In this document: piece by piece, positions 10,656-58,044 of the stretch
Numbering within the stretch: position 1 is the stretch's first letter
Layout: every line of letters begins with the position of its first letter
Made by a program: the position numbers and the translations under genes
Notes under the pieces: generated by a model
What the model was told of the DNA's origin: nothing
Databases searched by the model: none
Seen by the model: only the letters and a program-made list of their open reading frames with translations
Assembly: GCA_000442015.1 (NCBI GenBank)
Contig: KE561209.1
Coordinates: 248,001-312,000, forward strand
DNA: 64,000 nucleotides
DNA from: Rozella allomycis CSF55
Lineage: Eukaryota
Reading direction: 5' to 3'

Positions 10656-11720
10656 TTATTTGGTGGTTGGCAATGGCGGTCTATAGCTTGTTCGCCTTTT
10701 CATCATTTCAGCTCGTTTTTGCGCCTGCGGATTTCTGGCAAATGTGTTTTGGTGTCGGATTTTTTCATTCTCTTTGGCGGTTTTGCAATGCGGTATATGC
10801 CTTTCAGCTGTTTCATATTCGAATTTGCGAAGGCAGTGAGGGCATTGCTTTAAATCGTCATCATCGTCGAGCGAAAATACGGGTTCGTTGACGACAGTCG
10901 GTCGTGGGATCGATGATTTACGTACAAGAACTTTATCTGCACTCTTGGGTAGCTCTTTTGATTTGGAGGTGGGTAGATCTGCTTCTTTGGCACCTCGTAC
11001 CATCTTTAAGAATTTCTCATGCTCTTTTCTCCAGTCTTTCTTCCTTACTTTCTTTTCTGACTCATTGGAATTCTATATATTTGAATTCATTTTAGTGTAC
11101 CGATTGAGGTTTAGCTAGCACGTATTGCTCCAGTTCGGTCCCTTTGACCCGATTCTTTACAATATCGAATTGCTTGCGCTTCTTGTTGGCCACTTTTGAA
11201 CATATTTTGGTATGCCTTTCCATATGTAAGATTTTAACTAGTTTATTACCAAAGCTTCAGGCATGAATGTCCTTCCGCAGCTTTGACATGGCATAAGGAA
11301 CGAAGGGACAGAATACTCGTCTGGCCCATTTTCTGAATTTGCACTAATATCATGTTGAACTTCATGAATGATTGCACTTGGGATAACCTCATCAAATACA
11401 GTTGGCTCAATTTTTGCTTGTTCCAGCTTTTGGATAGAGACGGGTTTTTGTTTCGCGATGGGTGAAAGTAAATTTGGTTTTAAGTTGCTTTGAGGTTTTT
11501 CTGTGTAAGAAACGTTTGGGTGGGAATTATGTGGAAGTTTCGGCAATCGTTGAGCATTTTTCTTCCTGACTTTACATGATTGTATATGTCCCTCTAAACG
11601 GTCTTTGGGTATCTTTTGATGACCTTATTTAAGTAAAATAGACTCCCTACAGTTTGCGCACGCGACCAAAAAATCTCTCAGGTAAGAATTCGCATCTTCC
11701 TGTGATCTCCACAAACATCT
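10656..11720 (-). CDS. C2HC zinc-finger protein of the ZC2HC1/FAM164 family (start approximate)
   Basis: Three C2HC fingers after splicing: CANC..HIQSC, CQSCGRTFMPEALERHTKIC, CPHCLRKFEYETAERHIPHC; also WRKEHEKFLKMVR. Confidence 0.8.
11221..11249 (-). other. Putative non-canonical GT-TG intron, 29 nt
   Basis: gtaataaactagttaaaatcttacatatg; removal gives EAL|ERHTKIC. Nearby AG sites shift the frame. Confidence 0.75.
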
Positions 11721-11906
11721 AATTTACAGTTTAGGCGTGATGATACTTTTGAATGTGTAATGCTAGTTCACTTTTGGGAAATGAAACACCACAAATTGAA
11801 CAAAGTCTTGTTTGAACCTCACCTTTAAGCATGCTTGGTAACCAAATAAAAATAAAAACAAAAGTAAGATTTCAAGCGCGATTTATTTCTGCTCCAGGGT
11901 TTACAT

Positions 11907-12629
11907 TTACTTCTTGATATCTAAGATAACAGGAAATTGATACTTCCATTTTTGCCAGATATCTTCTTTAGTAGCTAAATCACACATGAAGTGAGCAATA
12001 TTCGGTATTGTAGTCTGTATTTTAGCAAATAAACTATGCTTGCGAGTTTCTAGTACTTCATATTCACATAATTCACTCTCGACAAAGTTAGAGGGTCTTA
12101 CTAGGACCCATTCAACCTTCTTATTATCATAACCCACATCTCGATGAAAATATTTCGCACAATCTAGACTATCTTTAAAAGGTGGTAAAACAGAACCAAT
12201 GAATCCTAGTGTCATTCGTTCCCCAATCCCCCGCCCAATATCATTCCCTAGAGGACTATCAACACCTAAAGTGTTCAACATTATGAATTTAAGTGGAAAA
12301 TCTCGTTCCAATGTTGCTGCTGATTTGCAAATAGCTTTTGCAGCATCTGTGACCAGCCGATATGGAGGACCAAAAACTCCTTTGAAGTTAAGCACATGCC
12401 CTAGAGCACATATGGCATGAGTACAATCTTGCAAAAGCTCTCTCCATTGCTGTTCAGGGACATCTAGGACTGACCCTTCAATTATCGTCAGTTTATTATT
12501 CGTGGATAAGGCTGGTGAAAACGAGGATTTAGATCGAACAACAGCCTTAACGGATACTCCTCTCTCTAGTAGCTGGGAAATGACTTGCTTTCCTACCCTT
12601 CCTGTGCCGCCCAAAACTAACACAGACAT
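11907..12629 (-). CDS. NAD(P)-binding Rossmann-fold oxidoreductase (NAD_binding_10/BLVRB-like), intronless
   Basis: GGTGRVG, LGHVLNFKGVFG, WVLVRP, NIAHFM, WQKWKYQFPVI. Confidence 0.85.
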   Translation of the reverse strand: MSVLVLGGTGRVGKQVISQLLERGVSVKAVVRSKSSFSPALSTNNKLTIIEGSVLDVPEQQWRELLQDCTHAICALGHVLNFKGVFGPPYRLVTDAAKAICKSAATLERDFPLKFIMLNTLGVDSPLGNDIGRGIGERMTLGFIGSVLPPFKDSLDCAKYFHRDVGYDNKKVEWVLVRPSNFVESELCEYEVLETRKHSLFAKIQTTIPNIAHFMCDLATKEDIWQKWKYQFPVILDIKK

Positions 12630-13474
12630 GTGCTATTTGTTTAGTAAACAAAATTAATAAGCATTTTATAGCTATAAAATAGACAATAGTAAAAATTATG
12701 AGGCTAACTATATTACAATCACCATCATCGAATGATTCATAAAGTACTAGGTACCAATACTTTCTGAAATTTACAAATAACGAAAATAAATTCGCCAAAA
12801 AAACATTTGCTGTACCCTGGCAACTACTGCCGAGGTCACTTTTGGAAAAGGAACTTGCGTCACTGGGAAGAGGACAACACACAAAAGGAGCAACATTAAA
12901 GACGATTGGACGATAGCAATGAAATAAAACGAAAATATTTACGATAACTACTAGTCGGAAATGAAGCAGAAAATATACGAAAGAATATCGATTCGGAAGG
13001 ACGTGCGTTTGTTGGATGACTTTCTAAGTGGCCGGAAACTAGGCTTGGCAACCAAAGAGAAAGTAAAACAGGATTGAAGGCATGTGTTGAATATATTCTT
13101 ACTATTAGAAGCGAGGCGCTTATGTATCGATTTCATTCTTGAAAGTAGGCTAGATTATTGATAGGCTTGGCAACCACCGGAGAAAGAAAGGATTATATAG
13201 CGGGCTTAAAGTTAAAGATTTTGTGGCAGACAGATAATCTACATTTCTGGAACCACATACCCATGAATAATCGTTTTAATCAGTCATTTTTCTTGTTCCG
13301 TTTCGTTTTAGAGTCTTTTCCCATCTATTGTATACCTTTCCCATTTACTTGGGTTTTAATGGCTACTAGATTTATGATGTAATAATTAATAAAGATTTCT
13401 TTTCCAATACTGGTTTTTAATTTTACCAAGAGTTTCATTTATCCATTCCAGATACCAATGTTCGAAAATTCGGA

Positions 13475-14880
13475 ATGTGTAGCGCTCAGAGCTTTTATAA
13501 CTTACTTGCAAACACACCACATTTTGAAGATTGGGTTTCTTATAATAAACAAGCCATGGCCTTTGAAATGCTCGATAAGATGGAAGGCAATGGTAGAATA
13601 TTCATTTACCAAAATCCGAAGAATGGCAAAAGGAACTTTATAATCGTCGATAAGTACTATATTTGTATAGTTTATTCTATAGCATAAATAGGTTTTGGTT
13701 CAGACTTTACAGGTAGTCAACCGAATTACTTTAAAGTAGTCCTTTGGACCCTCTACAGAGGCATTTCTTTGAACTAATACCTGAAAAATCACCGTGCTAT
13801 CTTTATCTTGATGTTGAATTTGTGCGCAAAAACCAATGTCGCAAAATTGACGAAATTACCATGATGCGGACCCTTAAATCTGTAATAATGAAACCCACAT
13901 AATTTAGGATTTATTGAAATGTCTAATACAATGCTATCCTACACTTGAAGACAAAATATCCAATCACGATATAATAGATCTGTAATTGAAATACATGAAA
14001 TTGAATAGAGATTCCTCAACTAACCAAAAATTCTCGAGACATATAATTTTAAGGAATAATGATGTAATCTTTTTAAACAATCGGCATTTGGGTATATTAT
14101 TTTGGTATGATAGATTTCAAGGATCCTTTGTGAAGTTCATGATTTCAATCGCAAAAAATATCCACCCGTTGCCATCTTGGTTTGTTGATGGAGAGAATGG
14201 TTTGAGCATCCCAGTGATTGATGAAGGTAAAAAGATAGAAACAACGAAATACAGCTGTGTATACGAAAAATAGATGTTTTCGGATGTACCTGTCTTGCAA
14301 ATATGAAAAACAAGCTGTATTTACCTTGTCAGATGAGAATGAGTTTCGTTTTGAGGATCAGTCAACCTTTAACATTTGGAGGCACACCTTAATATGCCCA
14401 GAGAAGGCGGATATCCCAGATGAAGGCAGTCTTTTGAGGGGACCTTTTCATGACGACGACGCTTCAAATTTGACAAAGAAAGCAAAACATGATCCAGAAC
14501 ATGTGTCAAAATCATCTAATGTAGAATCTTTTTTCACTCCCAATTCCAAATCATACAATTCATTGGAAGAGTTTTTGCTGAACTATGTTCGACAAAATTC
14601 TCCAAACGCAACTCTCAGGAGCAAGAAAGAAATAGGTAATGGGAAATTCTTGTCCTATGCGTTCAACAATTATCGCTTTTGTGAATTATCGAATAGAAAT
14701 CATAAATCTAACAACGTTCTTGTTATAGTGAATTTGGATGACCAAACATATTATCAAAAATGCATGGATCCAGTGTGTCGGAATTTCGGTCAAGCACCCA
14801 AGCACGTTCTTCCTGATGGGATCGTGTTTCAAGGAGAGCTTTTGGAAAATTTATTGGATGATGCATTTTGGGAAGATTAA
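13475..14880 (+). CDS. PRIMPOL: PrimPol DNA primase-polymerase (CCDC111)
   Basis: Spliced model gives HFFELI..PCYLYLDVEF (DxE), DSSTNQKFSRH (SxH), IDEAVYTKNRCFR, and the zinc finger RFC..HKSNN..YQKCMDPVC. Confidence 0.93.
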
Positions 14881-15062
14881 TTGCGCCAAAATTGAATTTT
14901 AAGGCAATGTCGGCTGCATTCCCTACCGCTACCTATTTTGAAGTTGAGTCAATAAATAAAAATATCTTTTTGGCAATCCTTTTCTCGTTTAACCAATTGA
15001 TTATAAATTTATCATCTCTTAGAATCTGTTTACTAGAAATCAGAATTTTTGAAAAGATAAAA

Positions 15063-18000
15063 ATGAGAGAAAGTAGACAACGGTTATTTAACACCAGATG
15101 TGCATACTCTTCTCTAAAACTGCTAAAAAAGCTATACAAAGCAGGAAGCGACACTCTAACAGATGAAGCAGCATCGTGTTTAGATATTGCCAAAGATTGT
15201 GAATCCAACGGAGATTTTCTTAATGCATTCCGCTACCGATGGTATTATCACGACATTGTGGGCGATGAAACTAGTGCTCGATACGGGCTAGCTGAGGCTT
15301 ACAGAAAGTAGTTTAGTGTTGGTGAATAAATGTAGGATTGGAATGTTGGATAAGGCTCTGACGATAATTAAAGACTTGATTAAAGATTTGTTAAGAGAAA
15401 GAAACAATTCTACTGTAAGATTAGTTTGTGTGCTTTTTAGGCATATTTGTTTGATGTGTATTTGACTCTAGGAAACATATATTTCCAGAAAACGTAATAA
15501 TGATTGATTTATTGTAAAGGAAGTGGTTTGACGTATTATAGTCCCACGGATTGCAATATGGCAATTGACGCGTATTTAAAAGGACTTGCGCTTGGGCCAA
15601 CGTTGGAGAGGGAATTGATTGATCAGCATGAAGAATTTTTGAAATACTTGGAAACGAGGCGCGATTATTTTATAAATTTAGCGACTCTTGAAATGAATCG
15701 TGAGAGATACAATGAGGCTGCCAAGTATTTAGAAAATGCATTTTCAGTCGCAGACAGATTGATTCAGAAGAGTAGATGTAGTCCCGTTCTAGTTTCTATA
15801 AGATGTGTTATAATTAAAGCCAAGCTACAAATTGCGCAGGGCAAATATATGGAGGCCAAGAGAACATTGATGAATTCTGTGTATATTGAGTATATCAAGA
15901 AGAAATTTGAAAAGGAATACATATTTATAGAATATTTGGAGTTGTTAATTAAAGTTTTGAATTATTTGAGAGAATTTGATAATGCAATGGCTTTTGTTAG
16001 GGTTATGATAGATATTTCTAGAATTGTTTGTGGCGAAGATTCAGCTGATTATGCATCTTCTATAGAATTGGAAGAGAAAATAAAATCTTTAAAGGGATTG
16101 AATATTGATAAGTTAACGACTGAAACTTTGAATAGGCTTGCGTTGGATCCCAATGATCCAGAATTTGAACATCATCTAGAGACTTTAATCGCACCAATAA
16201 AGTAAGTGAATTTATAGTTATTTGTTAAGGGAAATTGGTGCTATTGATAAAGGTATCGTGCTTTGTGAAAAATTGAGAGCATTGCCATTGAATGAAAGAA
16301 ATAAATTCATCGTGTATGATCAAATGGGTAAATGAATTTATAATTGATGAAAGGTGAATTATTTAAATTAAAAAGAGATTATGAAAAGAGTGTAGAATTT
16401 TATACTAAAGCGAGAAGGATTGCGATTGATGATTTAGAAAAGAGTAGTTTAGATCATGATATTTCAGAGATAATGATTAAAATGGGAGATAGAGATAGAG
16501 GAATTTCATTGTTGAAACAAGCGTATCAAATATGCCCAAAAGACAACATTGAAGATCAATACCAAATTTTGTTTTCATTAGCTAAAACTGATGTAGAATA
16601 TGAAAAATCTTTAAATGAATTTCTAAAGCAAATAAATTTCAATGAAGATGTTTCTGCTAGTGTTATCCAATTTGTTGAGAGAATTGAATCTACTAATTAT
16701 TTCAGTGGAAGAAAGCAATCAAACGCTACTTCAAAACTTACAGTGCAGCCAATGACTAAAGCCAAGAAGAAATTTAACAACGCTGAATTAACTTTAAGTG
16801 AAGATTTAGCGCTAGAAGAATCATCTAGTGATGAAGATGATGAAAAGCCAAAAACTAAAAAGAGAAAATCTGTAAACTCAAATAATGAAGAAAATTATGA
16901 AGAAATAAAAGAAAGAATTCCCTTGTTGCAAGACGATGATGTCGATGCAATAGAATCTGATTTGAAATCAAATGATGGCATTTGGTCTTCTGATGAAGAT
17001 GTTCCAATAAATGATATTGACATTCCAACTGATAATAAAGTACAGCAAAGATATTCAAGACAAAACCAAAGACACACTGAAATTGTTATTTCATCAAGCG
17101 ACGATGAAATGTCAACTGATCGTCATATGCATGTTAGAGATGCACCGTTTCTAAATGATTCTCAAAACCACAAGAGCAATTTATATGAAAGAAATAAAAA
17201 TGAAAAATCGCCATCTGATAGAACTAAAAATCACAAGTCACCAACGAATAAACAAAATTTCATCAAACGTACATCTACAAACCAAGAGATGACGGTTGAG
17301 AAATCAAAATCCTCAAATTTATTAGAGAAAGTTAAAAGTGCTTCAAATAATTGTACAGTGGTAATACAAGAGCAAGGGCCATTAGAGCAAATAGAGAAAT
17401 TGAGTCTTTTACAAGAAAAGGCAGTCTCAATCTCAATAATGATTGCAGATTCAAAATATTCATTGTATGTCTCAACTTATGATGACCACATTTCATTTGA
17501 TCACATAAAGTCAAGTTTTTACTCTTCTTTCACTCTCAATCCTTTCCCTGTACTCTTATCCTTGAAACTCAACGATAAATTTATCCCATTTAATTTGGAT
17601 TATTATGAATTCAACAATCAATGTTTTACAGCTGACTATTCCTGGTCATTCTCAAATTTACCCATTACTTACTTTAAATTGTGTTTCGATTCCAAATGTA
17701 AACCATCAATTGAATTTGAAAATCTTTTATGTACTGTTTCTGAAAACAACACACTTGATTTAACAAACATAACAAGAATAACAAATATTGAAACATCCTT
17801 TTTGAAAGAGCATTCCCATGAATTGTCAAAACATATCAAAGAGCTCAAAATCAATCAAAATATGTCTTTTGATTCAGATTTTTGCTATTTCTTGTCAAAT
17901 TTAATTGGATTAGAGTCTATTTCTTTAATGGGTTTGAATGGTGATACGCTAACTAAAATCTCACGTTTCATGCCCCAGAACATAAACGTCATAAATATCT

Positions 18001-19018
18001 CCAATATTCCCGATGACAAGACTCTAAATTCATTTTGTACCGAATACAGCAAGTTTGAAAAAGTATTCTCAGTATCAATATCAGACTCTACTTTTACTTT
18101 GTCACATAAAGAAACCGTCATCAACTTGTACAATCTAATTGTCTTTTGCTCAGATTTCACTTTTCTAAATAATATAAACGTAAATAGCAGTAAATTAGCT
18201 GCTTTGCTATTCCTTTTGTCAAAATCAAAAGTTATGAAAGTATTCCTTTCACGCATTGACATCACTGCAAGTCTTTTGGATTCTATTGAAGCCATTCATC
18301 AGTATTGCAATTATGCTTTTAGTAATCTAGTTTACAAGAGTTAACAATTAAAGATTATAAACTTTTTGAAAATAATTCAAAGTTTGAACTGCTACAAAGG
18401 CGATTTCCACTACTACATGGTATNGATATTTCATCGACTTTTCGACTAATTAATTATGATGAAAATAATGCAGAAGATTTGAAAAGTTTTTCTTTCAATT
18501 GTAAAAACCTGGATGAATTAAGTTTAAAGTGGAATTCCGTAAACAAAAGGTACTTGCCACATCTATTTTTCCATTTGGCAGCGTCCAGAATTCAGTCTCT
18601 TGATATATCAGGTATGCTAGACACCTTTGGTGAATTATCTCATTTGCATAGAATGGCCTTGACAAGATATGATATTCATTGGCAAGAAGCAATTGATCAT
18701 GAACTTTTTTCTAATTTTTCACACAATATAAGAAATGTGATATCATTGAAAATGAAATATTCAAGAATAGGAAACATAGGTATTAAGTCTCTTTCTCAAT
18801 CGGCACATCTAATGAATTTGAAACATCTGGACTTTAGCAATAGTGTAGTTTTTGAAAGCGTGTATGACCACTACATTGATGAAGAGAGTTTTGAATATTT
18901 TGTTGAGCAATTCAAAAATTTGGATTCATTAGATATCAAGTACTCTGGATTAACGCACTTTCCTAATGGATTAAACAAAATGAAGATGACAATGTCAAGA
19001 ACCAAAATCTCCTACTAA
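15063..19018 (+). CDS. TONSL/TONSOKU-like protein: TPR, acidic linker, UBL-like, LRR; no ankyrin repeats
   Basis: EAASC..IA....NGDF.NA and spliced AEAYRKIG resemble the TONSL N-terminus; further TPR-like helices, long acidic linker, C-terminal LRRs (LKHLDFSNS). N join at 18424. Confidence 0.6.
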
Positions 19019-19267
19019 TGAATCTCTATAAAGTATTTTTATATTCATCTTCGTATGTTCTTACTATCTTTAAGTGTTAACACCTTCCTCAGTGCATATT
19101 AACCATATGAAATTGCTGTGATAGCATATTGTTTTCCTAGGCATAAACAGTTACTTAACCACTTTAAGTTGTCAAAAAAATATAGTGTCACTTTATGTCA
19201 GTTTATGTAACTTTATGTCAATTGTCAAATGTCAAAATGATAAATAATCAGGACTTAAACAAGTTTG

Positions 19268-19897: not shown

Positions 19898-19941
19898 GCA
19901 GAAATGACGAATAATTGTCAAGATCTTTCATAAAAATGCTT

Positions 19942-21457: not shown

Positions 21458-21461
21458 TGTN

Positions 21462-22915: not shown

Positions 22916-24058
22916 TTAATCCTCATCAAAAGAGTCATCAGAATCAGCATTAGAATCAACCTCATTACCCTCATTGTCTTTGTCAGATTCGTTATTTTCT
23001 ACAAGATCAGAAAAAAAGGAAGTCATTTCCACTCTATGTCTATCATATTTGCCTTTTTTAAGTAAGGGCTCGTTTTGTTCTTGTAAATCAATGTCATGAA
23101 ATTTAACAAATGAATCATGTGATATAGTTGCCACAAAAGATGCATCTGAAGAAACAGCCATGCCTTCAATGGGATCATCGCCGTGAATTCCAATGGCCTT
23201 TATGATTCTATTAGGTAAAACTTCAATGAGTCTAATAACACCATCGGCAGCTCCTGTTAATGCTCTTGAATGATCTACAGCTTTCAGACATTGTATAGAA
23301 GGAGGATGATGAGGAAATCGATCAGACATATCTCCCCAATATCCATACGAGTAAATTTGTAATACTCCTTCTTGAGTTCCGCAAACAACTTTCTTGTTAT
23401 TGTGCATTACGGCAAGTGACAATAATTCATCTTCCATATTATCTGACCTTGCTAAAACATCAGGTTTTCTAATATCAAAAACGGATAAATAGCCATCGCC
23501 ACTAATCTTATGAGATGGTGAGATTTACCCTGCTGATATTAAATGCTTTTTGTGTTTAACATATACCAAATCTGATATAAAGTCAGAATGCTCCTCATAG
23601 CGCATTACTTTCTTCTTTGAACGCAGGTCCCAAATTTTAATTATTCCACTATCATCGCCAGTTGCTATAAGGTTTTCACTCAATAAATTTATTTTGTTGA
23701 TCGCATCTCTATTTTTTAAGAGTAAATAATTAATGTACCTGTGTGCCTTTTTAATTGAAAATACTGGAGCATTCTTCTCAAGGTCAAAAAGTTTAATGCC
23801 GCGGTCGACTGAGACAGATATCAATTCTTTTCTGGTGGAAATATTTATATTTACTCTCATCAGATATTTCAAAATCGCGTATCGAGTCTTCGTGTATTTG
23901 ATTTTTCTCAATTCTTTCTAGATTCGCTTTTTGCAGTCTATAACGTGTTAAAAGAAAAGTTACATGGACACATATCCTTCCGCATCTCCCACAAAGACTT
24001 TTTGGTCATCACTGGACAATCTTATACTAGTTGGCTGTGATCCGTTATCAAAACTCAT
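22916..24058 (-). CDS. WDR55: WD40 protein WDR55/Jip5
   Basis: ATGDDSGIIKIWDLR, HSDFISD, RSDNMEDELLS, WGDMSDRFP, acidic tail with FFSDL; four introns. Confidence 0.9.
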
Positions 24059-33555: not shown

Positions 33556-34215
33556 ATGATAGAATTCATAGTTGAGCATATGGAGGAAGAAATGTTTGAC
33601 TGGAGTATCGCAGGTAACATTAATTATACCTTTAAAATCGAATACAACGACGTCCACGAAAATCTACCATCAAACATGTCACTTTTGGTAACTTGTGTTC
33701 CCGATCAAGATCAACAAAAGATCGCCAATATAAAATCCTCCAACCTTCAAGTTGTTGACTATTTAGCACAAAATAATATTCCTATTGACCAAGTATGCCT
33801 CCTCGACAGTGAGGCTACTACTGTTCTTTCACCAGAAGATGCATCCAAATTCTCCTACTTTCTCTTTGGCGGAATTCTCGGCGATGGTATATATTTTGTA
33901 TTTGTAAAACTAGTTGATGAAATGGATTTTGACAAGACTAGTGAACTTCGCCAGTTCAAATTTCCATCCCGCCATCTGGGCAAGAAGCAAATGCCATTGA
34001 ACACTGCTGTTTTGGTGTCTGCTGATATTTTAAAAGGAAAACAATTTGATGAATTAAAGTTTGTGGATGATCCGGAATGGCCTACAGGGAAAAAAGAAAG
34101 TTTAATAATGCCGTTTCGATATCAAGCGGATGAGCAAGGGAAGCCAATAATACCCGAGAAAGTCTTGAAGATATTATTAGAGTCATCCTGTGATTTAGAT
34201 AAACTATTACAATAA
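33556..34215 (+). CDS. SFM1: SPOUT-family protein arginine methyltransferase Sfm1 (DUF431)
   Basis: FIVEHMEE..W...EY, VCLLD.EA...LSPED...FSYFLFGGILGD, RHLGKKQM, MPFRY. Confidence 0.9.
   Translation: MIEFIVEHMEEEMFDWSIAGNINYTFKIEYNDVHENLPSNMSLLVTCVPDQDQQKIANIKSSNLQVVDYLAQNNIPIDQVCLLDSEATTVLSPEDASKFSYFLFGGILGDGIYFVFVKLVDEMDFDKTSELRQFKFPSRHLGKKQMPLNTAVLVSADILKGKQFDELKFVDDPEWPTGKKESLIMPFRYQADEQGKPIIPEKVLKILLESSCDLDKLLQ
33614..33640 (+). other. Putative GT-CG intron, 27 nt, in frame and stop-free
   Basis: gtaacattaattatacctttaaaatcg; removal restores WSIAEY. Confidence 0.65.
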
Positions 34216-42727: not shown

Positions 42728-42785
42728 NATTCGTATATTTTTCGAAACAAAAGTCATATTCAAATTTTAGTTTTTCATATAAATT

Positions 42786-45700: not shown

Positions 45701-46122
45701 CTGCTGATCTACGTCGGGCCATTCATATCTTGCTACATCCACAACAATTTCAACACTTTTATTCATTACAAAACTTTGCATTTTCGAGCCACGCTGTTTC
45801 AAATACTCAAATAGGAATTCCCGGACCCATAGCTTGTCATTCAGACTTTCAGAGTGGTAACTATGTCTTAACCAATGCTATCATTCTTCCATAGACTATT
45901 TACTTGGAAAACAGAAAGGGCAAAGAAATGCGAGACGTTTGAGTTGCTCTCCTGCAATATTTCTGCTGCCATCTTCCAAGAATTACACTGCTGCTTAAAT
46001 TCATAAAACCTTTCCTCTAATATTTTATTTATTCCATTATTACCGATATATCTCTTTTCTTCCTTTTGACAATCAGTCGCATAAAATCTCTCGCATAATC
46101 TTTCGAAGCCTTTGAGATCCAT
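42786..46122 (-). CDS. XPO6: Exportin-6-like karyopherin
   Basis: IBN_N start, DVARYEWP, KEDLPNARKSELK, KWRYFF, KKHHTLRDDI, and spliced end EDFNSFSRTIINIVNDFIFY. Confidence 0.8.
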
Positions 46123-46415
46123 GCGAAAAATTTCCGACAAGCAATTTCAAAGCCTGGAGATGAAAAGATTTGAGAAACATAAAGTCGCAATATTGAATAT
46201 TTATATAGTTAAATAATTTTTTATGAATGAATTTTTCTCGCTTCACGCTTGTTGATGTATGTAAAACTTAGGTTGTCAGCGATTCTGTGCGGGAGAAAAT
46301 AATGCAAACCTTAGTCCTTAAAGCAATTATACAAGCAAAAAATGTGAGCATAACGCAACAATGAAATTATTTTAGTATTTTCATATTCTCAACTCCTCAA
46401 TTTCTTAATTTCCAA

Positions 46416-48683
46416 ATGAAGAATCTTTTGAACTTTAGTTTAACAGCCTCTGAAATTAAAAATCTCTCTCAAACTCTTATATCTAAATCGCGTGCAGTCT
46501 ATGACCAAGTTAGTGCCTTGTCAAGTGACCGTGCGACGTTTAAGAATGCAATCATCCCCATCGCCAAAATTGAAGCTGAATACAGCGTTGCATCGGCTAA
46601 TATTTATTTTCCGCAGTATGTGTCACCAATAAAGGAAGTGCGCGATGCCAGTGTGGAAGCCAACAAGGCGCTTGAGGTAGGAACGATTTGAGTGAAAGAT
46701 ATAGGAATTTAGCATTGAAACAGATATGCGAGCTGATATTTACAAAGTCGTTTTGGCTGTCGCTGAAAAGAATGAAGAATTGGGGCCCGAAGATAAAAGG
46801 TTGCTTGAGAAGATGCTTCTGGATTATAAAAGGAATGGTTTAGGGCTTAATGAAAAGAAACAGGAACTGCTAAAGGAAATCAAAAAGAAGCTTTCTAATT
46901 TGGCCATACAGTTTTCTTCCAATATGAATGAGGATAATACAACTGTTATATTTACTGAAGAAGAGCTTGAGGGTGTGCCGGCGGATTATTTGAAGTCGCT
47001 GAATAAGAGAGTGATCGATCAAAAGGAATATTTTGTTTTGACGATGAAGTATCCTGACGTGTTTGCCGTTTTAAAAAATGCCGTCAATGAAGAAACTAGA
47101 CGACGTATGGATTATTCATACAGCACCAAATGCAAGGCCAATTTGCCAATATTGGAAGAAGTAAAGAATGTAATCTGTGGGTTAATAGGCTGTAAGATTG
47201 AGAAGAGATGCCGCCCAGGTATTGGGATATGAAGATCATGCTACGTTTAGATTAGAAACTAGAATGGCTAAAACCCCTGAAAATGTTTTTAATGTAACAA
47301 TTTAAATTTCAAAAAAGAGTTTCTTGAAGATTTAAAGAATAAATTGACGCCATTAGGTGAAAAGGAATTAGAAAGATTAAGACAGCTTAAAAGGGAACAT
47401 TTGGAATCATTGGGAAAGCAATTCAATGGATCTATTGAAGCCTTTGACTTTCACGTAAAGATCATTTGTGATTTTAATTAGTTTTACCACAAAATGTTAA
47501 TGGAAAAGGACTATCAAATAAATGAAGAAGAAATCAAAGAATATTTTAGCTTAGAATCCGTTACCCAAGGTTTGTTTATATTGTACTTAAAATAAGGGAT
47601 GTTGGATATTTACCAAAAAGTTTTGAATCTGAAATTTACTGAAATTGAAAATAAAAATGTTTGGCATCAGGATGTCCGAACTTTTAATGTAATTGACGCC
47701 ACTTCAGATGAAGTCATTGGTCAATTTTACCTTGATTTGTTTCCACGTGATGGAAAGTATACCCATGCAGCTTGCTTTGGATTACAACCAGGGTATATTG
47801 ATGTTGACACAAATGAACGTTGTTATCCAGTAGCTGCAATGGTTGCAAACTTTAGCAAACCGTAAGAATTGTTTTTATTCTTTACATAGGATGGAAGGGA
47901 AACCTAGTTTGTTGAAACATAACGAAGTTGTTACCTACTTTCATGAGCTTGGGCATGTTATGCATCAAATCTGCTCCAAAACTAAGCATGCAAGATTTCA
48001 TGGAACAAAAGTTGAAAGAGGTACGATGGTATCCTATATATTAATAAGATTTTGTTGAAGCCCCATCTCAAATGTTAGAAAACGTAAGAATACTCGAATA
48101 TAAAAGATAAGTGGTGCTGGGAGCCAACCATTTTGCACAAACTATCAGAGCATTATCAACGAAAAGGTGAAAAATTGCCCTCGGAAACTATTGAAAGAAT
48201 GGTAAAAGCCAAGAATCTTAATGCGGGATTATTAAACCTTAGACAGCTATTTTTTGGCTTTTATGACATGAAACTACACACGGCTAAAGAATCTTTAAGT
48301 GCTACAAAGCTTTGGGATGAATTAAAGGAAAATATTACCCTAATTCCAAATCCGCATAATACTTGGCCTGTAGCTAGCTTCGGTCACATAATGGGCGGAT
48401 GTAAGTTTTTTATATTTGTTTCCATAAAGATGATGCAGGATACTATGGATATTTATGGAGTCAAGTTTTCTCAGCAGACATGTTCTTTTCCAAATTTAAA
48501 AACAACGTTATGAGTGTAGAGAATGGTTTGCAATACCGAAAATTAATTCTCGGACCTGGCGGAAGTAGGTAAATTAGTCTATGTGATCATATACATAGGG
48601 ATGGTGACAATATGTTGAGAGACTTTCTAGGAAGAGATCCCACTGTGGACCCTTTTCTAAAATCGATTGGATACAATAAATAA
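46416..48683 (+). CDS. Thimet oligopeptidase/neurolysin (peptidase M3, Prd1-like)
   Basis: [54 protein letters not shown]. Confidence 0.95.
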
Positions 48684-48839
48684 AATAAAATACATTTGTA
48701 CTTGCTTCAATCAGGCTTACGACTCATTTCACTTTCAGTTCTACGTGACTGCTCATTTCATTTTTAACGAAATATTTATGAACTTTCTTCAAAGTTTAAA
48801 GACCATGCTTACCATTTATCAATTCGAGGGGAGTTTGCN

Positions 48840-50012
48840 CTTCAGCCTCAATTGTTTGCCCATCAGGTGTGACTAGAACACTGGCCATTAAACCTAATGA
48901 TCCAAATCCTTGTGCAATGATATCTGACTGTACATCTCCGTCGTAATTCTTGCAAGCCCATATGAAACCTCCATCTGATTTCAAAGCCTGTGCAACCATA
49001 TCATCAATCAATCTGTGCTCATAAAATATTCCCAATTTTTCAAACGTCGTCTTGAAATCATTCCTATTTTGGCGTTTTAGTAAGGGTACTGATAAATGTC
49101 TTCAAATATATCTTTGAATCTTCCATCATATTCTTTCAAAATTGTATTTTTGGTTGAAAGGTATAAAGGCATTTTCTTATTCACGGCCATTTGGAAACAA
49201 CTTTGAGCGAACCCCTTGATGGAATCGTCAGTGTTAAACATTGCCATTGCAACACCAGGTCCATTAAAAGTATTGACTGTGTGAACAATGGATGGCTGTT
49301 TCATTCCTTTGGGAATAAATCTAATTTCAACTTCACCGGGTCCTGGAACTAAAAATTCTGTTGCTTGGTACTATTGCATTAAACAAATATGCNTTTTTTA
49401 CTCGATCCATTCTATTTTTATAGATTCAAAGGAATCCATGGAGCTTCAACATTAACGCATATTCAATTTACTGTTGTTATGAATAGTGGAACATCAATAG
49501 ACTGGTTAGATTCATGATTTGCAAAAAAACTTCCAGCACCTCAAANGCTTAGTCCAGCCTGGAACAATCTTTGGTAAACTGGGAATAATGATTGGTTCTC
49601 TAAACACTGTCCCATTCAACGACTTTCTAATCGTTCCATTGGGGCTTTTCCACATCCTCTTCAACTTGAATTCCGTATTTAACGAATAAATTGAAAATTT
49701 ACCTTTAACTCTCGCTTCATCTGGTGTTATTGTGGCACATTTGATTCCAACACCAACTTTCTTAATCTCATCCGCTGCATAATGAGTGACGAGATCATTA
49801 GTTTCATCACGATGGGTAATACTTAGGTCGTAGTACTTTGTCTCCAAATCAACGTATGGGAAAATCAGCTTCTCCTTTATCATCTTCCATAAGACTCTGG
49901 CCATTTCATCTCCATCTAGATCCACAATTGGGTTTTTCACTTTTATTTCTAGTCTATCTTAAATTTTCATATTACTATTCATTGTGGAATAAGTTCTAAT
50001 TGAATGAAACAT
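48840..50012 (-). CDS. IDP1: NADP-dependent isocitrate dehydrogenase, fragmented by N joins
   Basis: [55 protein letters not shown]. Parts missing at N49393-49546 and beyond N48839. Confidence 0.93.
49673..49702 (-). other. Putative GT-GG intron, 30 nt, in frame and stop-free
   Basis: gtaaattttcaatttattcgttaaatacgg; removal restores [17 protein letters not shown]. Confidence 0.7.
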
Positions 50013-50253
50013 TTTGGAAATTTCGAGTGTATGAGAAAACGAGTAGAGGAATAAAAAGGTGGCGATTCAAAAGATGTAACACCAAATTTGATGCAAGCCT
50101 ACAATTAAGAGAAACATGTCTTTATTGAAAACAATCAACATCATTTAAAAGTGGAGAGTGCCAGTAAGCTACTATGCCGGATTTGGAATACGTAAAATTA
50201 TATTTTCATGATAATTCGGTTCAGCTTTAACGTTTCGAGATCCAGACCCTTGC

Positions 50254-50979
50254 ATGAATTTTATTCTTTCCTTTTTGGTAGCTCTCTTCTGCAACAAAGT
50301 TGAAAAAACAAGCTTCCCTGTTCTTCCGTGGGAAACAGATGCAAATATTTTTCAATATCTTTCAGGGAAGGAAGTCACAGAACTGATTCAATTTGGTCAC
50401 TATAAAGCCCAATACAAAGAAATTCTTGAAATTTTAGAGAAATGTAATCCATTAATATATGGTTCATCATCTCCATACCACTTTGCATTTAGTGCATCAG
50501 ATACTGATCCAGATTGTTTCAAGGGTCAAAACCCAGAAAGTATTAAATTTTTGATGAAACAGTTCAAATTTGCAGTCCTTTATTTAAAAATCGATGATTA
50601 TTTAGCTAAAGCTAAATTATTCGAAGCATATGGATTCAATGGAAGAAATATATTTGTTTTAGTTCTGAACTCTAGTGAAGACCTTGATAGTTTCGAAAGA
50701 GTTGAAGAGTTTACGAATATAAACATTTTGAAAGTTTACATTACGTCTAATATTGTACTTCACAGAGGAATGGCTCATTTATCAAAAATTATGAAAGATA
50801 ATACATCTATCAAAACGTTGTCATTGAATTCATTATTTAATAGAGGTTATCAAATGGATCTAACAGATAACCTGTTTAAATCATTAAGAAACATTGAATC
50901 ACTTTCGATATTACAAAAGAATGTACCAGTGCTGTTCAAGGTCTTCAAATCTTTGAATGATCATGTTCTGTCATTAGGA
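50254..50979 (+). CDS. Signal-peptide/F-box-like/LRR protein, truncated at N50980
   Basis: MNFILSFLVALFC, then LPWETDANIFQYLS, then IKTLSLN and IESLSI repeats. Confidence 0.55.
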
Positions 50980-51241
50980 NCAATTCGAGAAAAATAATGT
51001 GAACACAATTCATTTTTTTAATGCAAGAGAAGCGAGTACAGCCGCTAGTATGGAAAAGTATGGATGTTTCCATATCAGAATATTAAAGTTGGTGAAAATG
51101 TAAACCTTTTTCTTTTTGGCATGACACATTAACATATAATTATTATCAGGCGTCTTAGGTTTGAATACTAGCAAATACTAAATTATAGGATTTCAGTACC
51201 TAAACCTTGTGCTCCGCCTCAGCCACATAACACATTTGAAA

Positions 51242-52302
51242 ATGCAACATTTCCCGCTTGAAATTTGGCTGGTAATTTTATCGCACTTAAGCCTAAATGA
51301 TATGAAACAAATGATTAGAACATCACCCTACATTCGTCTACTCATCTTGGACTTCATTCTTCATCAAGATCCTGCAGTGACTATTTCTTGGAAATGTCCA
51401 TATGTAATTCAATATCTAATCAAACAATTCTGTGGTATCTGGCTAACCAAAGATATATGTGACGATTTCTTTAGCCACAGCGCGCACAGTAAGAGGTTTG
51501 TGCATTTTTTGAACTTTCTAAAACAAGATGACACTTCTCAAAGNGATGAGTCAATCAATCAAACTGATTTAAATCAAAATTTATTAAATAATTGTAAAAG
51601 TAAATCAACTCATAGCCCTAAAGAAATTAGGATGAAAAAGAATCACTTAATNATTTAGATGACAACGAAAATGATGCGAAACTAATATTGAAAATTCTAG
51701 CTGATAATTTACATAACATTCAGCATTTGCGTCTTCGCTTTCATTACAGTGCATTTTCTTTGTTCAAAAATTTAGACTATTTTTATAATAAACTTTCTTC
51801 GTCTAAAGTGGAGAGTCTTTCCATTCAAAGTAAAGGTGTTAAAATTAGTGATGAAACAATCAAAATACTTGCAAAAAACTATAAAAACCTGAAAAGTTTA
51901 GAATACAGCTTTGATCATAATTTTTTTGATAAAGTCAGATTGTTATTATCAAATTTGAATTCATCTAAAATTGAAAAGCTAAAAATTTCTCTTCCTTTCT
52001 CTTCGCCAGGCCAAATCGATTGGGTCTACTTTGCAGAGAATATAAGAAATGTCAAAGAATTAAGTATCACAGACTGTCACATAACACTGGAAGACCTTGA
52101 AACATTGTTGCAAACACATCCACGTTTGTACCTTCTTGATCTTTCGTCTGCGTTTTTGCATGTTCAGGATTCGGTAAGGTTTGCCGAAGCTATCAATCAG
52201 ACTTCAATCAAACATTTAACGCTTAAGAATAACCAACTTAATGTCAATGAAGTGGAAGAGAGGCTCAAGGGCAAAGTAACACTCACAATAAATAAACAAT
52301 AA
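51242..52302 (+). CDS. F-box/LRR protein(s), interrupted by N joins at 51544 and 51652
   Basis: MQHFPLEIWLVILSHLS F-box; LRRs VESLSI, LKSLEY, IEKLKI, LYLLDLS, IKHLTLKNN. Confidence 0.7.
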
Positions 52303-52478
52303 TCTGCATTAATTTCTATTGTTATTGTCAAATGGATTTTCTTTAGTTTTGAATATTTCATTCCCTACTGACAATTCGTTTGGATTGATGCATGATATCG
52401 TTTTCAAGACGTTCCATTTTCCCGGAGTGTAATCGCATTCAAAAGCGAAAATTCTAACATGCGTACATTTTGAAACCN

Positions 52479-53044
52479 GAGCTGTTAACTATGCGTTCCA
52501 ATTTGCGTGCCAATGTGGGTTATTGCATACAGCTGAAAATTATCTTCAACTTGAACCTTCGGCAGACAAAAACTATGCGATAAGATTAGCGGCAAGAAAT
52601 GGCCACACTGAGATTGGGAAGTACCTTTTAACAAATCCAAGAGTAGACCCAAGTGCAAACTGCAATTTCGCTATTCAGTGGGCTTCAAATTACGGTCATG
52701 CAAATGTTGTTAAACTTTTGCTAGAAGATCCTAGAGTAGACCCAAGTGCAAATGCTAATTTCGCTATAAAGTGGGCTTCATATAATGGTCACGCATATGT
52801 TGTTAAACTTTTGCTTGCAGATTCTAGAGTAGATCCTAGTGCAAATGACAATTTCGCTATAAAGTGGGCTTCATATAATGGTCACGCAGATGTTGTTAAA
52901 CTTTTGCTTGCAGATTCTAGAGTAGATCCTAGTGCAGATGATAATATCGCGATAAAGTCGGCTTCACAATACGGCCACGCAGAAGTTGTTAAACTTTTGC
53001 TTGCAGATTCCAGAGTAGATCGTTACAATAATGCTATTCAGTGA
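52479..53044 (+). CDS. Ankyrin-repeat protein (VDPSANDNFAIKWAS type), 5' truncated
   Basis: Near-identical 102-bp/34-aa repeats with GHADVVKLLLADSRVDPSA. Confidence 0.9.
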
Positions 53045-53586
53045 ATCAGCGGGCTATTTATGGAGATCATGTAAGTGTTCTTAAACTTTTGCTTGAAGAT
53101 AGTTGGCACATGGGCTAATTACAATTTCGCTATTCAGTGTGCTTCCAAATATTGTGTTACAATTTAGATGCGCTTAACGTACAAATTACAATTACAGATG
53201 CACTTCACCTTTCAGATTCCAGATAACAATTAACAATACCAACTTGATTTCTTGCTGGAAAAACTCATGTTTATTTATATTCCCATCCAAATCAATACAT
53301 ATTAATTTGTTCTAAAGTCTACTCAAGTATTTTATCTTTGCGAGAGTGTGAGGCGGAACTAACGAAATCTATTCCTTCTCTTATATGCAGCATCAGAGGG
53401 CATTTTGATATGTATTTAAGCAAGTCCGTTTATTCTTTGGCTGACCCGCCCATTAGCAATACAGTTACATCGCGACATAGAGCAAATAAAAATTCGTGGC
53501 AAATAATTAAACTGACACAAATAATCGAATAATGTGTATTTGATATCTTAATTTTAGAGGGTAACTAAATTTATTAATTGAATACT

Positions 53587-53900
53587 CTAACGTGCAAATA
53601 TTCTTGATCTGATAGATGAAGATATTGATTTTATAGTTGACGCCCTTTTCAGTGATGGCGAGGTGCTAGCCCCACTTTTAGTATTCTCCCGCGCAAACAA
53701 AGCTCTAGCATTCTTTGATTTGACTTCACTTAACATTTTGGAATACTCATCTGCACCCAATTTTTGTTGATACGCCTGTGTATTCTTGCCGAAATTCTGA
53801 TTTGCGGCAACAGCTTTAGAAAAGTATTTCAACGCATCATTCCTCGTCTGGTTGTCTAGGTTCGAATTGTGCAATTTTGAAGTGAGTTTCTTGATAGCAG
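53587..53900 (-). CDS. 3' fragment of a hypothetical protein
   Basis: Open frame from N53901 to the stop at 53587; no family recognised. Confidence 0.45.
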
Positions 53901-53924
53901 NAAAGTCGTATCTAGAGGAATTAA

Positions 53925-54350
53925 ATGGCTACAAACTATTATCTAGTCATCGTAGATGCAAATGACCATCCTGTATATGAAGCAGAATATGGTCCATTAT
54001 CCAGAGGTGAAGTAAAAAAGGAAGATTGGAGACAACTTATACAATTCATAGCATATTCATCACTAGATGTCATTGATGAATCTATAATGAATTCAAATGG
54101 ATTTTATTTTAAAGTTATTGATAAATTTAATGAGTGGTTTGTATCGGCACATATTACTCCAAGTGGAATGAGAATGGTTGTTTTACATGATGCGCGAAAT
54201 GAAGACGCGATTAAAAATTTTCTTTTTGATTGTCATGAACTATATTCAAGAATGCTGCTGAGTCCTTTCTTTGATCCGAATAGTTCGATACAATCTGTAC
54301 ATTTTGATTCCAAAGTTAAAGCTTTAATGAAGAAATACTTTCAAATTTAA
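53925..54350 (+). CDS. TRS20: TRAPP subunit 2 (sedlin/Trs20)
   Basis: YYLVIV..NDHPVYE, QFIAYSSLD, IDKFNEWFVSA, IKNF, LSPFF. Confidence 0.95.
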   Translation: MATNYYLVIVDANDHPVYEAEYGPLSRGEVKKEDWRQLIQFIAYSSLDVIDESIMNSNGFYFKVIDKFNEWFVSAHITPSGMRMVVLHDARNEDAIKNFLFDCHELYSRMLLSPFFDPNSSIQSVHFDSKVKALMKKYFQI

Positions 54351-54406
54351 TTAAGTAAATCAACAATAGAATGTAAATATCATTTAGTTTTATTGAGAAG
54401 GAGCTT

Positions 54407-55632
54407 CTATTTTTTCTTTTTAGTTGTTTTCTTTTTACCCTCATCCGCCTATTTTATAAAACATTTTTCACTTACTTTTCTCTTTGGAGTGCTATTTGCA
54501 GCGACAGGTGCTTTCTTGAAATAAGAATCTAAACGATTTTGGACCTTGGCTTCCTTTGCTTTTAAAAGCTTCTTGACCCCATTCTTCACTCTGTCTTCAC
54601 TGAATCCTTTCTTCTTCACCAAAAATTCTATCAATTCTTCTTCATTTGGAGCTTCCCACTTTAAAACTACGTTGGAGACATCAGGAAGAACTTCTGGTGC
54701 CTTAAACAATTCCCTCGCCTGTTCAAAGGGCCAATCTTCAGGAATCTCATACTTTTTCTTATCTAAAGACTCTAATATCTTTTCAAGGCTTCCATGAGTC
54801 TTCATCAAATTCACCGCTCTGTGAGGCCCAATCCCCTTGATGGAATCACAATAATCACAGCCTAACAAAATACACAAATCAATAAACTAAAAATATTCGA
54901 GTAATAAACTTACCTGATCCATCGTCATTTCAAGCCCATCCAAAACCTTTTCAAGATTGATTTCGCTGATTGGCATTTTCCTTGCCTCACTAAACGTTAA
55001 ATGTCGAGAAAGAATTGGAGATCCAAAAGTTAAAGTATCCATATCCTCGGATCCAGCTGAATAAACTTTTCCTGCTTTGCAAAGTGCCGCACATTGAGCC
55101 TCTGCTTCGCACGGTGCCTTTGCTAACCAAATAAAATGTTTACTTCGATGTAAGGAATTCCCATTAAAGATAATAACTTTTTACAATCTTCATTATGTTG
55201 CTTTGTTACTTTCACAGTTCTCTTAGTGAATTTGTCGACCGTTTCCATATCGCCTTGAAATCTTCAAAATTTATACATACCATCCTCTTGTGCTTTTTCT
55301 GCAGCTTGTTCTGCCTCTTTACGCTTTTCTAATCTTTTCGCCAGCTCCCCGCTCTTCATGGTGGGAGGTTTGCCATCAAACACGTAAACTGGTTTTATAC
55401 CATGCTCAACCATTCGTATGGTCCTCGTAAATAATCCTACAATATGACTAGTCTCTTCCCCGTCGCTATTCATCAAGGCACTTCCTTCGTTTCGGATTGC
55501 GATCAGAAATTGATAGATCGACATACTAGCATCTATTGCAACTTTTCTTCCAAAATATTGCTGAATAGAAAATTCTTTGATAGCATCAGGAGCGTGATCG
55601 GCAATCACTTTTGAAAGTTGGTGAATTCCCAT
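54407..55632 (-). CDS. FEN1: Flap endonuclease 1
   Basis: [49 protein letters not shown] box QNRLDSYF. Confidence 0.98.
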
Positions 55633-55779
55633 TCAAAGAAAAAAGTTGTAAAAATCTAAAACTTGCAACAATGGAAGCACATTAAAATCTTTTCAAAGAC
55701 ATTTCAAACATTTTAAATTTGTTGCTACTTGCTGAAAAAAGTTTAATGTTTAATCTAAAATTCCTGGTGGCTTTTGCAA

Positions 55780-56295
55780 ATGACACGATTGAGAATCAAT
55801 GAAGACAATACATTCAATAACAATGCGAAAGACATTAAAGAAAAGTTGTTAGAAATCCAAGCCGAGGATGATAAAAGCAAAAGAAAATTTACTCTAGTAC
55901 TCGAAAACGTCTTTTGGATAACGGCTGGAATCTTTGTGCTATGGTACTCTGACATTATAAATATTTTGATGTCGAAAAATTCTCATCTGAACTGGTAAAT
56001 CATGGAGGAATCTCTTAATCTCAGGACATTCCTTTATATGTCTATTTTGACAGGCACCGTATTTATTTCAATATTCATTTATACCAATTTCTACCTGTCC
56101 AAAAGGTTAGGAAAAAATTATCTCTTTGAAAATTGGAAGGAAGAAATTCCTATGGCCATCAATTTGGCGACATTATCAGGCATAACATCCATCGTTACTT
56201 TTACAATAGGAATCTATGGCTACTATGGCATATTATCCATTATTTATACTCTAATTTTAACTTTTTCATCAATCACTCTGCTTGGATTGTTTTGA
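55780..56295 (+). CDS. TMEM128-like small membrane protein
   Basis: FWITAGIFVLWY, IFIY, WKEEIP.AI..AT; four TM segments; one 30-nt intron. Confidence 0.6.
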
Positions 56296-56330
56296 ATCAG
56301 TCAAGGTTTAATAAATTTCGAAAGTGATTC

Positions 56331-57343
56331 ATGTGTAGTTTTAGCTTTACTTTTTCGATAGCACTTGCTTTTGTTGTGAGCTTAATAATAGTAATATTTT
56401 TATGTGTCAAATTTGAGTTAAGAATGGTTAGTGTGAAACGCTTTCGAAATATGATTCAGACTGACTGCGCTTTCGAATATCTCGATTTGAAAACAAAGAG
56501 GAAAAAACGGTTCAATAAATTGGAAGATGCCGAAACATGCTACCTGTCAGTTGTAATACCTGCTTACAATGAGTCTGAACGAATCATCAAAATGCTCGAT
56601 GAAACAATTAGCTATTTAACCAAAAATAATTATGATTTTGAAATCATAGTTGTGAATGACGGCAGCAAAGATGACACTGTATCTGTGGTTGAAACCTATC
56701 GATTGGCAAATAATATACATCGATTAAAGGTTTTAAGTTACCAGGATAATCTTGGAAAAGGGGGTGCCGTAACTACAGTACATTGAAATTTGCCTTGTAA
56801 TACTAGGGAATGTTGAATGCTTCCGGAAAGTACATTCTTTTTGCCGATGCAGATGGTGCATCAAATTTTGAAGAGATAAAGAAACTCGAAAATGCTATTA
56901 TACAAGAAAAATTCGATGCAGCGTTTGGTTCTCGAGCTCACATGGTCAATACTGCTGCTGTTGTAAAGGTATAACGTCGCTTCTGTTCGTGTTAGAGATC
57001 AATTTTGAGGAACATTTTGATGAAATGTTTTCATTTCTATTTGTCTATAATGGGCATTCGTGATATCGCTGACACACAATGCGGATTCAAAATGTTCACC
57101 AGGGACAGTGCCAGACAAATCTTTTCAAACATGCATGTGAAGGGTTGGATATTTGATATTGAAGTTATCATTTTGTTGAGATTCTTTAAGAAGAAGATTA
57201 AAGAGATTCCTATTACTTGGCATGAAGTGCCGGGTTCGAAAATGTCGTTAATGTCTGATTCGTTCCAAATGGCTCTTGATTTATTCTTAATACGTTTCAA
57301 CTATTTTACCAAATTTTGGAACATAAAACACCATCAGCAATAA
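56331..57343 (+). CDS. ALG5: Dolichyl-phosphate beta-glucosyltransferase
   Basis: [48 protein letters not shown]. Confidence 0.95.
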
Positions 57344-57400
57344 AAAAGGCTTTGCATTAATCTTTTTCAACGTGATCATATTCAGCCTGAAATTTCGTTA

Positions 57401-58044
57401 ATGTCAGCAGACGTGGAATCTGCCGTGCCTCAAGGAAACATTGGAGCTCCTCCACCACAGCAGCAATCAATTCTTCAACAATCAAGGTAATCTTTAATTT
57501 GTCAATCTGAAAGCCATCCTGTAGCTTTAGTTTTCCATTTATTATTCAGAACATGTGCTCTAGTTTTTTACTTGATACTATCTTATGCAATTAAAAATTT
57601 TATACTCGTGTTTGTTATAACTGTTCTTTTACTATCATTTGATTTTTGGACCGTCAAGAATGTTACAGGAAGGTTGCTTGTGGGCTTAAGATGGTGGAAC
57701 ACAATTAAGCCTGATGGTTCTAATGATTGGGTATTCGAGTCTAAACCAGTAAAAATATTTCAAATTATTATTCGGCACATATAATTGTAAATCCAGTTGA
57801 TTCCAGAGTGTTTTGGTGGAGTTTGTACATTTTTGCTGGAATTTGGTGGTTGCTAGCATTAACAAGTATTCTGACTCTAAGTATATCTTGGCTGATGATT
57901 GTTATGGTTGCCATAATGTTGAATATGGCTAACGTAGCTGGATTTTCCAAATGTGATAAGGAAGCGAAGAAAAGGGCTGCCGGTGCTCTTGGACAAGGAA
58001 TTGTGGGCCAAATACTTTCAAATAGGTTAGGAAATATATTTTAG
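57401..58044 (+). CDS. TVP23: Golgi membrane protein Tvp23/FAM18
   Basis: HPVALVFHL, DFWTVKNVTGRLLVGLRWWN, WVFES..NPVDSRVFW. Confidence 0.95.
57749..57774 (+). other. Putative non-canonical GT-CG intron, 26 nt
   Basis: gtaaaaatatttcaaattattattcg; removal gives WVFESKP|AHIIVNPVDSRVFW. No in-phase AG nearby. Confidence 0.75.

Follow-up and report, generated by a model that had tools for sequence, protein, structure and literature searches.

The window analysed here is the 64,000-nucleotide (nt) stretch of Rozella allomycis CSF55 contig KE561209.1 that spans positions 248,001 to 312,000, and all coordinates below count from its first letter. Its G+C content is 34%, its long open reading frames (ORFs) are read under the standard code, and it is dense with ordinary eukaryotic genes that are interrupted by very short introns. 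Five of these genes carry a segment that resembles such an intron and ends in TG, CG or GG in place of AG. The five genes encode a protein with several C2HC zinc fingers, a muskelin-like protein, an SFM1-like methyltransferase, TVP23 (DUF846) and an NADP-isocitrate dehydrogenase (IDH). Whether the segments are spliceosomal introns with a relaxed 3′ splice site is the question weighed in this work.

The zinc-finger segment (11221-11249, minus strand) is 29 nt long and reads GTAATA..ATG. The muskelin segment (31749-31777, plus strand) has the same length and reads GTAAAG..TTG. On the plus strand, the SFM1 segment (33614-33640) measures 27 nt with GTAACA..TCG at its ends and the TVP23 segment (57749-57774) 26 nt with GTAAAA..TCG, and the IDH segment (49673-49702, minus strand) measures 30 nt and reads GTAAAT..CGG. 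Removal is needed for the reading frame in the zinc-finger, muskelin and TVP23 genes; the SFM1 and IDH segments are in frame and free of stops. The initial annotation had given these coordinates, with lengths of 26-30 nt, GTA donors and the ends TG, TG, CG, CG and GG, and every one of these particulars was reproduced. None of the five segments has an AG at its 3′ end, and sliding the boundaries along identical flanking bases gives no AG either; there is also no AG 20-33 nt from the donor in any of them. All five end in C, G or T followed by G. The last base, as set by homology, is G in each case, so the final G is indeed kept, as had been proposed, and the non-consensus base is always at position -2.

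The ordinary introns of the window were collected by exon chaining. The genes were scored by codon usage, exon chaining and a trinucleotide intron model, each of which is too weak for unaided annotation, and exon chaining merged adjoining genes. The ordinary set comprises 109 GTA..AG introns of 25-31 nt, most often 26-28 nt long (28 nt, 31 introns; 26 nt, 27 introns; 27 nt, 24 introns), and 94 of the 109 have at least 25 open codons on both flanks. The donor consensus is GTA with A at +4 in 64%, and all three phases occur. The acceptors are TAG (57), AAG (39), GAG (7) and CAG (6). Across the whole window, the frequent AAG, the rare CAG and the lack of a conserved branch-point motif are unusual among fungi. 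No positional branch-site signal was found in the ordinary introns, where YTRAY is present in 34 of the 109 at scattered positions. A simple scan within ORFs added six or more in-frame GTA..AG segments, 27-30 nt long. Those that are free of stops within long ORFs lie at 33887-33913, 26985-27011, 29877-29903 and 56391-56417 on the plus strand and at 43759-43785 and 23709-23738 on the minus strand; an ORF-based annotation would take them as coding. Base composition, gene density and intron size in the window (introns of approximately 27-30 nt) agree with those given for Rozella allomycis in passages of three articles (PMC8476143, PMC8042348, PMC6349667), and one passage of the last describes Rozella introns of approximately 30 nt without conserved donor and branch motifs (PMC6349667).

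Against this background, the five segments look familiar. They all start with GTAA, which is the donor consensus of the ordinary introns, they all fall inside the 25-31 nt class, and their AT content of 77-83% is like that of the ordinary introns. Since this genome also has ordinary introns that are in frame and stop-free, the SFM1 and IDH segments are not odd as multiples of three. The window holds approximately 115-120 introns in total, so that non-AG ends account for approximately 4% of them, in keeping with the few percent first estimated. The terminal G is the first G at a length of at least 22 nt in four of the five segments. YTRAY is found in two of the five, 8 nt from the 3′ end in the muskelin segment and 17 nt from it in the SFM1 segment, and in none of the other three; the muskelin segment contains TACTAAT, with a branch-like A 8 nt from its 3′ end.

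The boundaries of the segments can be fixed by protein families, independently for each gene. In the zinc-finger gene, residues 110-125 of the upstream exon match positions 2-17 of the 25 positions in the zf-C2HC_2 profile. The spacing F-x4-[LA]-x2-H-x3-C seen in two other fingers of the same protein is reproduced by the 29-nt removal only, and once the segment is removed, the frame stays open through an ordinary intron (11073-11100) into a 138-codon exon that carries the third finger. For the muskelin-like gene, the Protein Data Bank (PDB) entry 8ttq served as the reference: residues 2-45 of the upstream exon correspond to 190-233 and residues 3-97 of the downstream exon to 239-338, and the two exons are contiguous on 8ttq, with no gap, when the unaligned end residues are counted. 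Against a muskelin profile built from 29 homologues hand-picked among 150 listed, removal of 29 nt scored 185.6 bits, compared with 181.4 bits for 26 nt and 179.3 bits for 32 nt.

The SFM1-like gene offers an internal comparison. Against a profile of 76 of the 101 homologues found, the unspliced ORF scored 189.5 bits and the ORF with the 27-nt segment removed 201.7 bits (+12.2); the 24-nt and 30-nt variants reached 197.3 and 189.0 bits, respectively. The Pfam coordinates of the gene become contiguous once the segment is removed. At 33887-33913 on the plus strand, the same gene contains a 27-nt intron of the ordinary kind (GTA..TAG), which likewise is in frame and lacks stops and which falls where the translated ORF has 11 residues more than yeast SFM1. 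Its removal gave 195.5 bits (+6.0), and removal of both gave 207.7 bits (+18.2 relative to the unspliced ORF).

In the TVP23 gene, residues 8-85 of the upstream exon match positions 1-78 of the DUF846 profile and residues 5-60 of the downstream exon match positions 84-139, so that the two are contiguous. A TVP23 profile made from 112 of 120 listed homologues gave 265.1 bits for removal of 26 nt, 263.4 bits for 23 nt and 262.2 bits for 29 nt. The best matches of this gene are from early-diverging fungi, with 65-75% identity. A homologue search with the downstream exon returned no matches. Used as the query of a metagenome scan, the best TVP23 homologue matched 80 loci, none of them more than 56% identical to it, and the one locus inspected (L011) has no intron in the gene. 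In the IDH gene, the segment corresponds to an exact 10-residue gap in both printed alignments to PDB chains, and 99 query residues pair with 89 chain residues in 44 of the 48 matched PDB IDH sequences. For all five genes, removal of exactly the segment described gives the best family fit. The claim that each removal restores conserved sequence therefore holds, with exact family boundaries for zf-C2HC_2, muskelin, SFM1, TVP23 and NADP-IDH. Homology separates variants that differ by 3 nt in either direction by only 1.7-12.7 bits.

We also considered that other, canonical sites are used and that the resulting proteins are slightly off the family consensus. Alternatives with GT/GC..AG ends were sought with a donor at most 30 nt from the claimed one and an acceptor between 15 nt upstream and 60 nt downstream. 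On paper, such alternatives exist: eight for the zinc-finger segment, seven for muskelin, four for TVP23 and nine for IDH; there are none for SFM1. All of the zinc-finger alternatives remove finger residues, and those in the IDH gene delete conserved residues. Of the two alternatives scored for TVP23, read-through combined with a 32-nt GC..AG intron gave 248.8 bits and a 68-nt GT..AG intron 227.8 bits, losses of 16.3 and 37.3 bits; the other two differ in a later acceptor that removes five more residues. For muskelin, a 38-nt GTAAAG..GAG form loses three residues, scores 172.9 bits (12.7 bits worse) and must skip a CAG 2 nt upstream, and a 44-nt alternative scores 171.3 bits. Only the muskelin segment has a mild canonical alternative. 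At least one likely ordinary intron exceeds 31 nt: 61329-61373 on the minus strand is likely a 45-nt GT..AG intron with an in-frame stop, outside the 25-31 nt class, and length alone thus does not rule out the 38-nt muskelin form. The contig of one DNA run, X7, has eight additional letters after 61349, inside this intron. When the window was scanned for GTA..AG introns of 32-45 nt, no well-supported one stood apart from a shorter ordinary intron or from the five segments. With the family profiles disfavouring the muskelin form and the TVP23 read-through, we consider canonical splicing at other sites very unlikely.

Contigs from four runs, all of them DNA (X1, X2, X5 and X7), were compared with the window over 42729-62000, a range that covers the IDH and TVP23 segments; the runs may include data that were used to assemble the window. 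The comparison of base substitutions runs only to 49659. The X7 contig, from low-depth DNA, is identical to the window over 57728-57927, and the TVP23 region is spanned without gaps by the contigs of X1 and by those of X5, a run from another study. The 26-nt length of the TVP23 segment is therefore real. At the IDH segment, the contigs of X2 and X5 have no deletion at 49698 and keep the 30 nt, and the listed X5 piece is free of gaps. The sole X1 contig at this place is one base short at 49698, within the segment, and thus has it at 29 nt. Independent sequence thus bears out the genomic bases in length and letters for TVP23 and the 30-nt length for IDH in X2 and X5, and departs from them for IDH in X1. 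The insertions and deletions shown against the contigs lie, by their coordinates, mostly in spacers or ordinary introns, for example at 56984 in the intron 56969-56995; further ones, at 55702 and 55742, lie between genes.

These contigs bear on a further explanation, namely that the bases at -2 are errors of the assembly and that the true genome reads AG. The scaffold does hold 26 single Ns, which mark unreliable joins, the contigs differ from the window at several of them, and the contig check covers two of the five segments, those of TVP23 and IDH. None of the five segments lies within 100 nt of an N. The X7 identity at TVP23, the gap-free passage of X5 and X2 across the IDH segment, and run depths of 150-450, at which random errors at five functionally equivalent sites are very unlikely, all speak against such errors. 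Assembly error is excluded for the TVP23 and IDH lengths and is unlikely at these depths, and as an account of all five segments it is most unlikely. Around the IDH gene, the window has Ns at 48839, 49393, 49546, 50980, 51544, 51652 and 52478, all within 48819-52480. In three runs, 39 other letters stand in place of 49393-49546, and a hand translation of this replacement restores the IDH sequence that is expected. Further contigs link 48819 to 50981, 50979 to 51653 and 51542 to 52479. The replacement and these joins show that the window gives the IDH gene in a partly scrambled form.

The most serious competitor holds that the acceptors are defective and that the segments are spliced poorly or not at all. 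The SFM1 and IDH segments would then be translated as inserts of 9 and 10 residues, respectively, and the zinc-finger, muskelin and TVP23 genes would be null or leaky alleles, for which an intact second allele might make up if the organism is a heterozygous diploid. The two in-frame segments are multiples of three without stops, as this explanation needs. The contigs differ from the window at approximately 0.3-1% of sites, plus insertions and deletions, so two haplotypes or strains exist, and the base comparison ends (49659) before the acceptors of the TVP23 and IDH segments. The distribution of the changes is unlike that of random lesions: all five are at -2, and none was found at +1, +2, -1 or elsewhere in these genes. 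The frames downstream are open and conserved, for 89 codons after the TVP23 segment, 98 after the muskelin segment and 40 after the zinc-finger segment, which argues against dead genes. The IDH insert falls in a stretch that is ungapped in the PDB chains. Its 29-nt form cannot be read in frame, so IDH can be made only if at least this form is removed, and the occurrence of both a 30-nt and a 29-nt form argues that the segment is not coding, as a coding insert would not tolerate this. Removal of the SFM1 segment, moreover, gains twice the bits gained by removal of the ordinary AG intron in the same gene. We regard failed or poor splicing as unlikely, although it deserves more weight than the two explanations above.

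Two kinds of scan of the window addressed whether the deviation is confined to -2. The first looked for introns required by the frame, with any terminal dinucleotide, a GTA donor, a length of 24-32 nt and an AT content of at least 70%; the second admitted any donor and acceptor class at 25-31 nt with a strong coding signal on both sides. In-frame, stop-free introns are invisible to such ORF-based frame scans. Beyond the zinc-finger and TVP23 segments, the ORF-based scans returned only gene ends, antisense frames and low-complexity sequence, and among their results no intron convincingly had a donor other than GT or a last base other than G, although these scans are insensitive. The result suggests that the deviation concentrates at -2. 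For the two in-frame segments, the regularity of the final G, which the initial annotation described as always NG, may partly be a selection effect. Exon chaining used 150 introns, of which 143 end in AG. The seven non-AG calls lie at the ends of genes, next to Ns or next to unusually long bridging introns; two of them (61349-61373 and 18940-18968) were inspected, and all seven are treated as artefacts. An apparent non-GT intron at 14875-14903 was rejected, as it is an intergenic spacer of 27 nt, with a stop codon before it and an ATG after it. This spacer, within 14876-14908 on the plus strand (stop codon 14876-14878, next ATG at 14906), is an extremely short intergenic spacing. We also rejected a TA-bounded elimination of DNA of the kind known from ciliates, because on reading by hand, a TA-to-TA removal in the zinc-finger segment does not restore the frame.

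Taken together, we judge it somewhat more likely than not that the five segments are genuine spliceosomal introns of the tiny 25-31 nt GTA class, cut at a 3′ site in which the base at -2 is not A. Boundaries that were fixed independently by protein families and that all end in G support splicing at sites of the form CG, GG or TG (BG, as they are called in yeast), which appears plausible and mechanistically coherent. That RNA is cut at these sites, that distance plays a role and that any second-step proofreading is weakened are points that we infer from DNA. In introns of 26-30 nt, the distance between branch site and 3′ end is likely short, judging from the total length; only approximately 8-10 nt would separate the branch site from the 3′ end. 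The stretch of RNA able to reach the active site for exon ligation would then be very narrow. An AG would be taken when it lies inside the reachable stretch. When AG lies outside it, a G able to pair with the first G of the intron might be accepted, and the base at -2 would be tolerated. Under the initial proposal, the 3′ site would be set by distance from the donor together with a terminal G; the lengths do fall in a narrow class, and AG is missing 20-33 nt from the donor. The simple form of the rule, in which the first G is used, is not general, since 39 of the 109 ordinary introns skip an earlier G, at a length of at least 22 nt, in favour of AG. AG is thus preferred, and a bare G is apparently a fallback in a narrow window.

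Several points weigh against this reading of the segments as BG-spliced introns. The case for splicing at these sites is built on homology and frame logic applied to DNA. The cross-check with DNA contigs covers the TVP23 and IDH segments; as the base-substitution comparison stops at 49659, a substitution at the TVP23 or IDH acceptor in X1, X2 or X5 would have escaped it, and only X7 is known to match the window at the TVP23 acceptor. Near its Ns the assembly is unreliable locally, and this affects the IDH gene itself, 130 nt away from the segment. Variants that differ by 3 nt are only 1.7-4.4 bits worse for TVP23, muskelin and SFM1. The in-frame SFM1 and IDH segments could simply be translated. 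There is no recognisable branch motif by which distances could be gauged, with YTRAY as sparse as reported above for both classes of intron. The strictest scan recovered only the TVP23 segment among the three cases required by the frame (zinc-finger, muskelin and TVP23).

The other genes of the window are unremarkable in kind. Besides the muskelin, SFM1, NADP-IDH and TVP23 products, those identified are an ABC transporter, a MutS homologue, an NAD-binding protein, a primase-like protein, TTC21/IFT139, a leucine-rich repeat (LRR) protein, a Cid1-type poly(A) polymerase, WDR55, a formin, a TRAPP subunit, an exportin, ankyrin repeats, an SH3 protein and a HECT_2 protein. The ORF at 16344-18341 on the plus strand matches TTC21/IFT139 only weakly (E value 0.00026, below Pfam's own cut-off); if the match is real, the organism builds a flagellum or cilium. 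Over 52374-53016, the contig depth in X1 and X2 is approximately 4000, compared with 200-450 elsewhere. This stretch, which overlaps an ankyrin-repeat ORF (52433-53041), belongs to a multi-copy element or to a gene family. Rfam and tRNA scans of the window gave no matches. No splicing factor was found among the 20 ORFs with a Pfam match (30 were scanned), a result that applies to the window and not to the whole genome.

The AG at the 3′ end is among the most invariant signals of eukaryotic gene expression, and its choice in the second step is still being studied, mostly in yeast mutants. If the BG-splicing reading is true, this genome would show, as an experiment of nature, which contacts exon ligation truly needs, and it would link the fidelity of the 3′ site to the miniaturisation of introns. 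It would also explain how gene finders restricted to GT-AG split, truncate or pad gene models, here those of IDH, TVP23, muskelin, SFM1 and the C2HC zinc-finger gene. A search of article texts found no report of non-AG acceptors in rozellids; supplementary intron tables were outside its scope.

The nearest relatives of the five segments are the ordinary introns of the same genome, with which they share the GTA(A) donor, a length of 26-30 nt, AT-richness, the lack of a conserved branch motif and occurrence in all phases. They differ in having T, C or G at -2 of the acceptor and no AG 20-33 nt from the donor. Comparable systems of tiny introns are those of ciliates and microsporidia. U12-type introns tolerate varied 3′ terminal dinucleotides, and in them distance from the branch site largely decides where the 3′ site falls. 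These traits would be shared with the present segments, but U12-type introns have a conserved donor of the RTATCCTT type, and none of the donors found here (GTAATA, GTAAAG, GTAACA, GTAAAA and GTAAAT) is of that type; we therefore rejected a U12-type origin. In human, TG 3′ splice sites in U2-type introns are described, with 36 genes verified experimentally (PMC2374985). The present segments are similar in that TG would serve as the 3′ splice site of a U2-type intron. The human sites are described as alternative, whereas here TG, CG and GG would be constitutive, in introns shorter than 31 nt. The closest parallel is found in Saccharomyces cerevisiae without Prp18, which uses BG (CG/GG/UG) 3′ splice sites; the same article states that Prp18 and Slu7 are dispensable when the distance between branch and 3′ site is short (PMC10711555). 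A ruler combined with a terminal G would be consistent with this prp18-deletion behaviour. As in the yeast mutant, the 3′ end keeps G and dispenses with A; unlike the yeast BG sites, which are minor, mutant-dependent and located beside an annotated YAG, the sites described here would be the sole productive ones in a wild-type genome. We put forward tentatively, as something that could well prove wrong, that a wild-type, rozellid-like, early-diverging fungus constitutively splices approximately 4% of its introns at BG sites, because introns of approximately 27 nt would leave one reachable position for ligation, at which a terminal G may suffice and the A at -2, U2AF1-type recognition and Prp18/Prp22-type proofreading may be dispensable. 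Such a fungus would be the natural counterpart of the prp18-deletion state of yeast.

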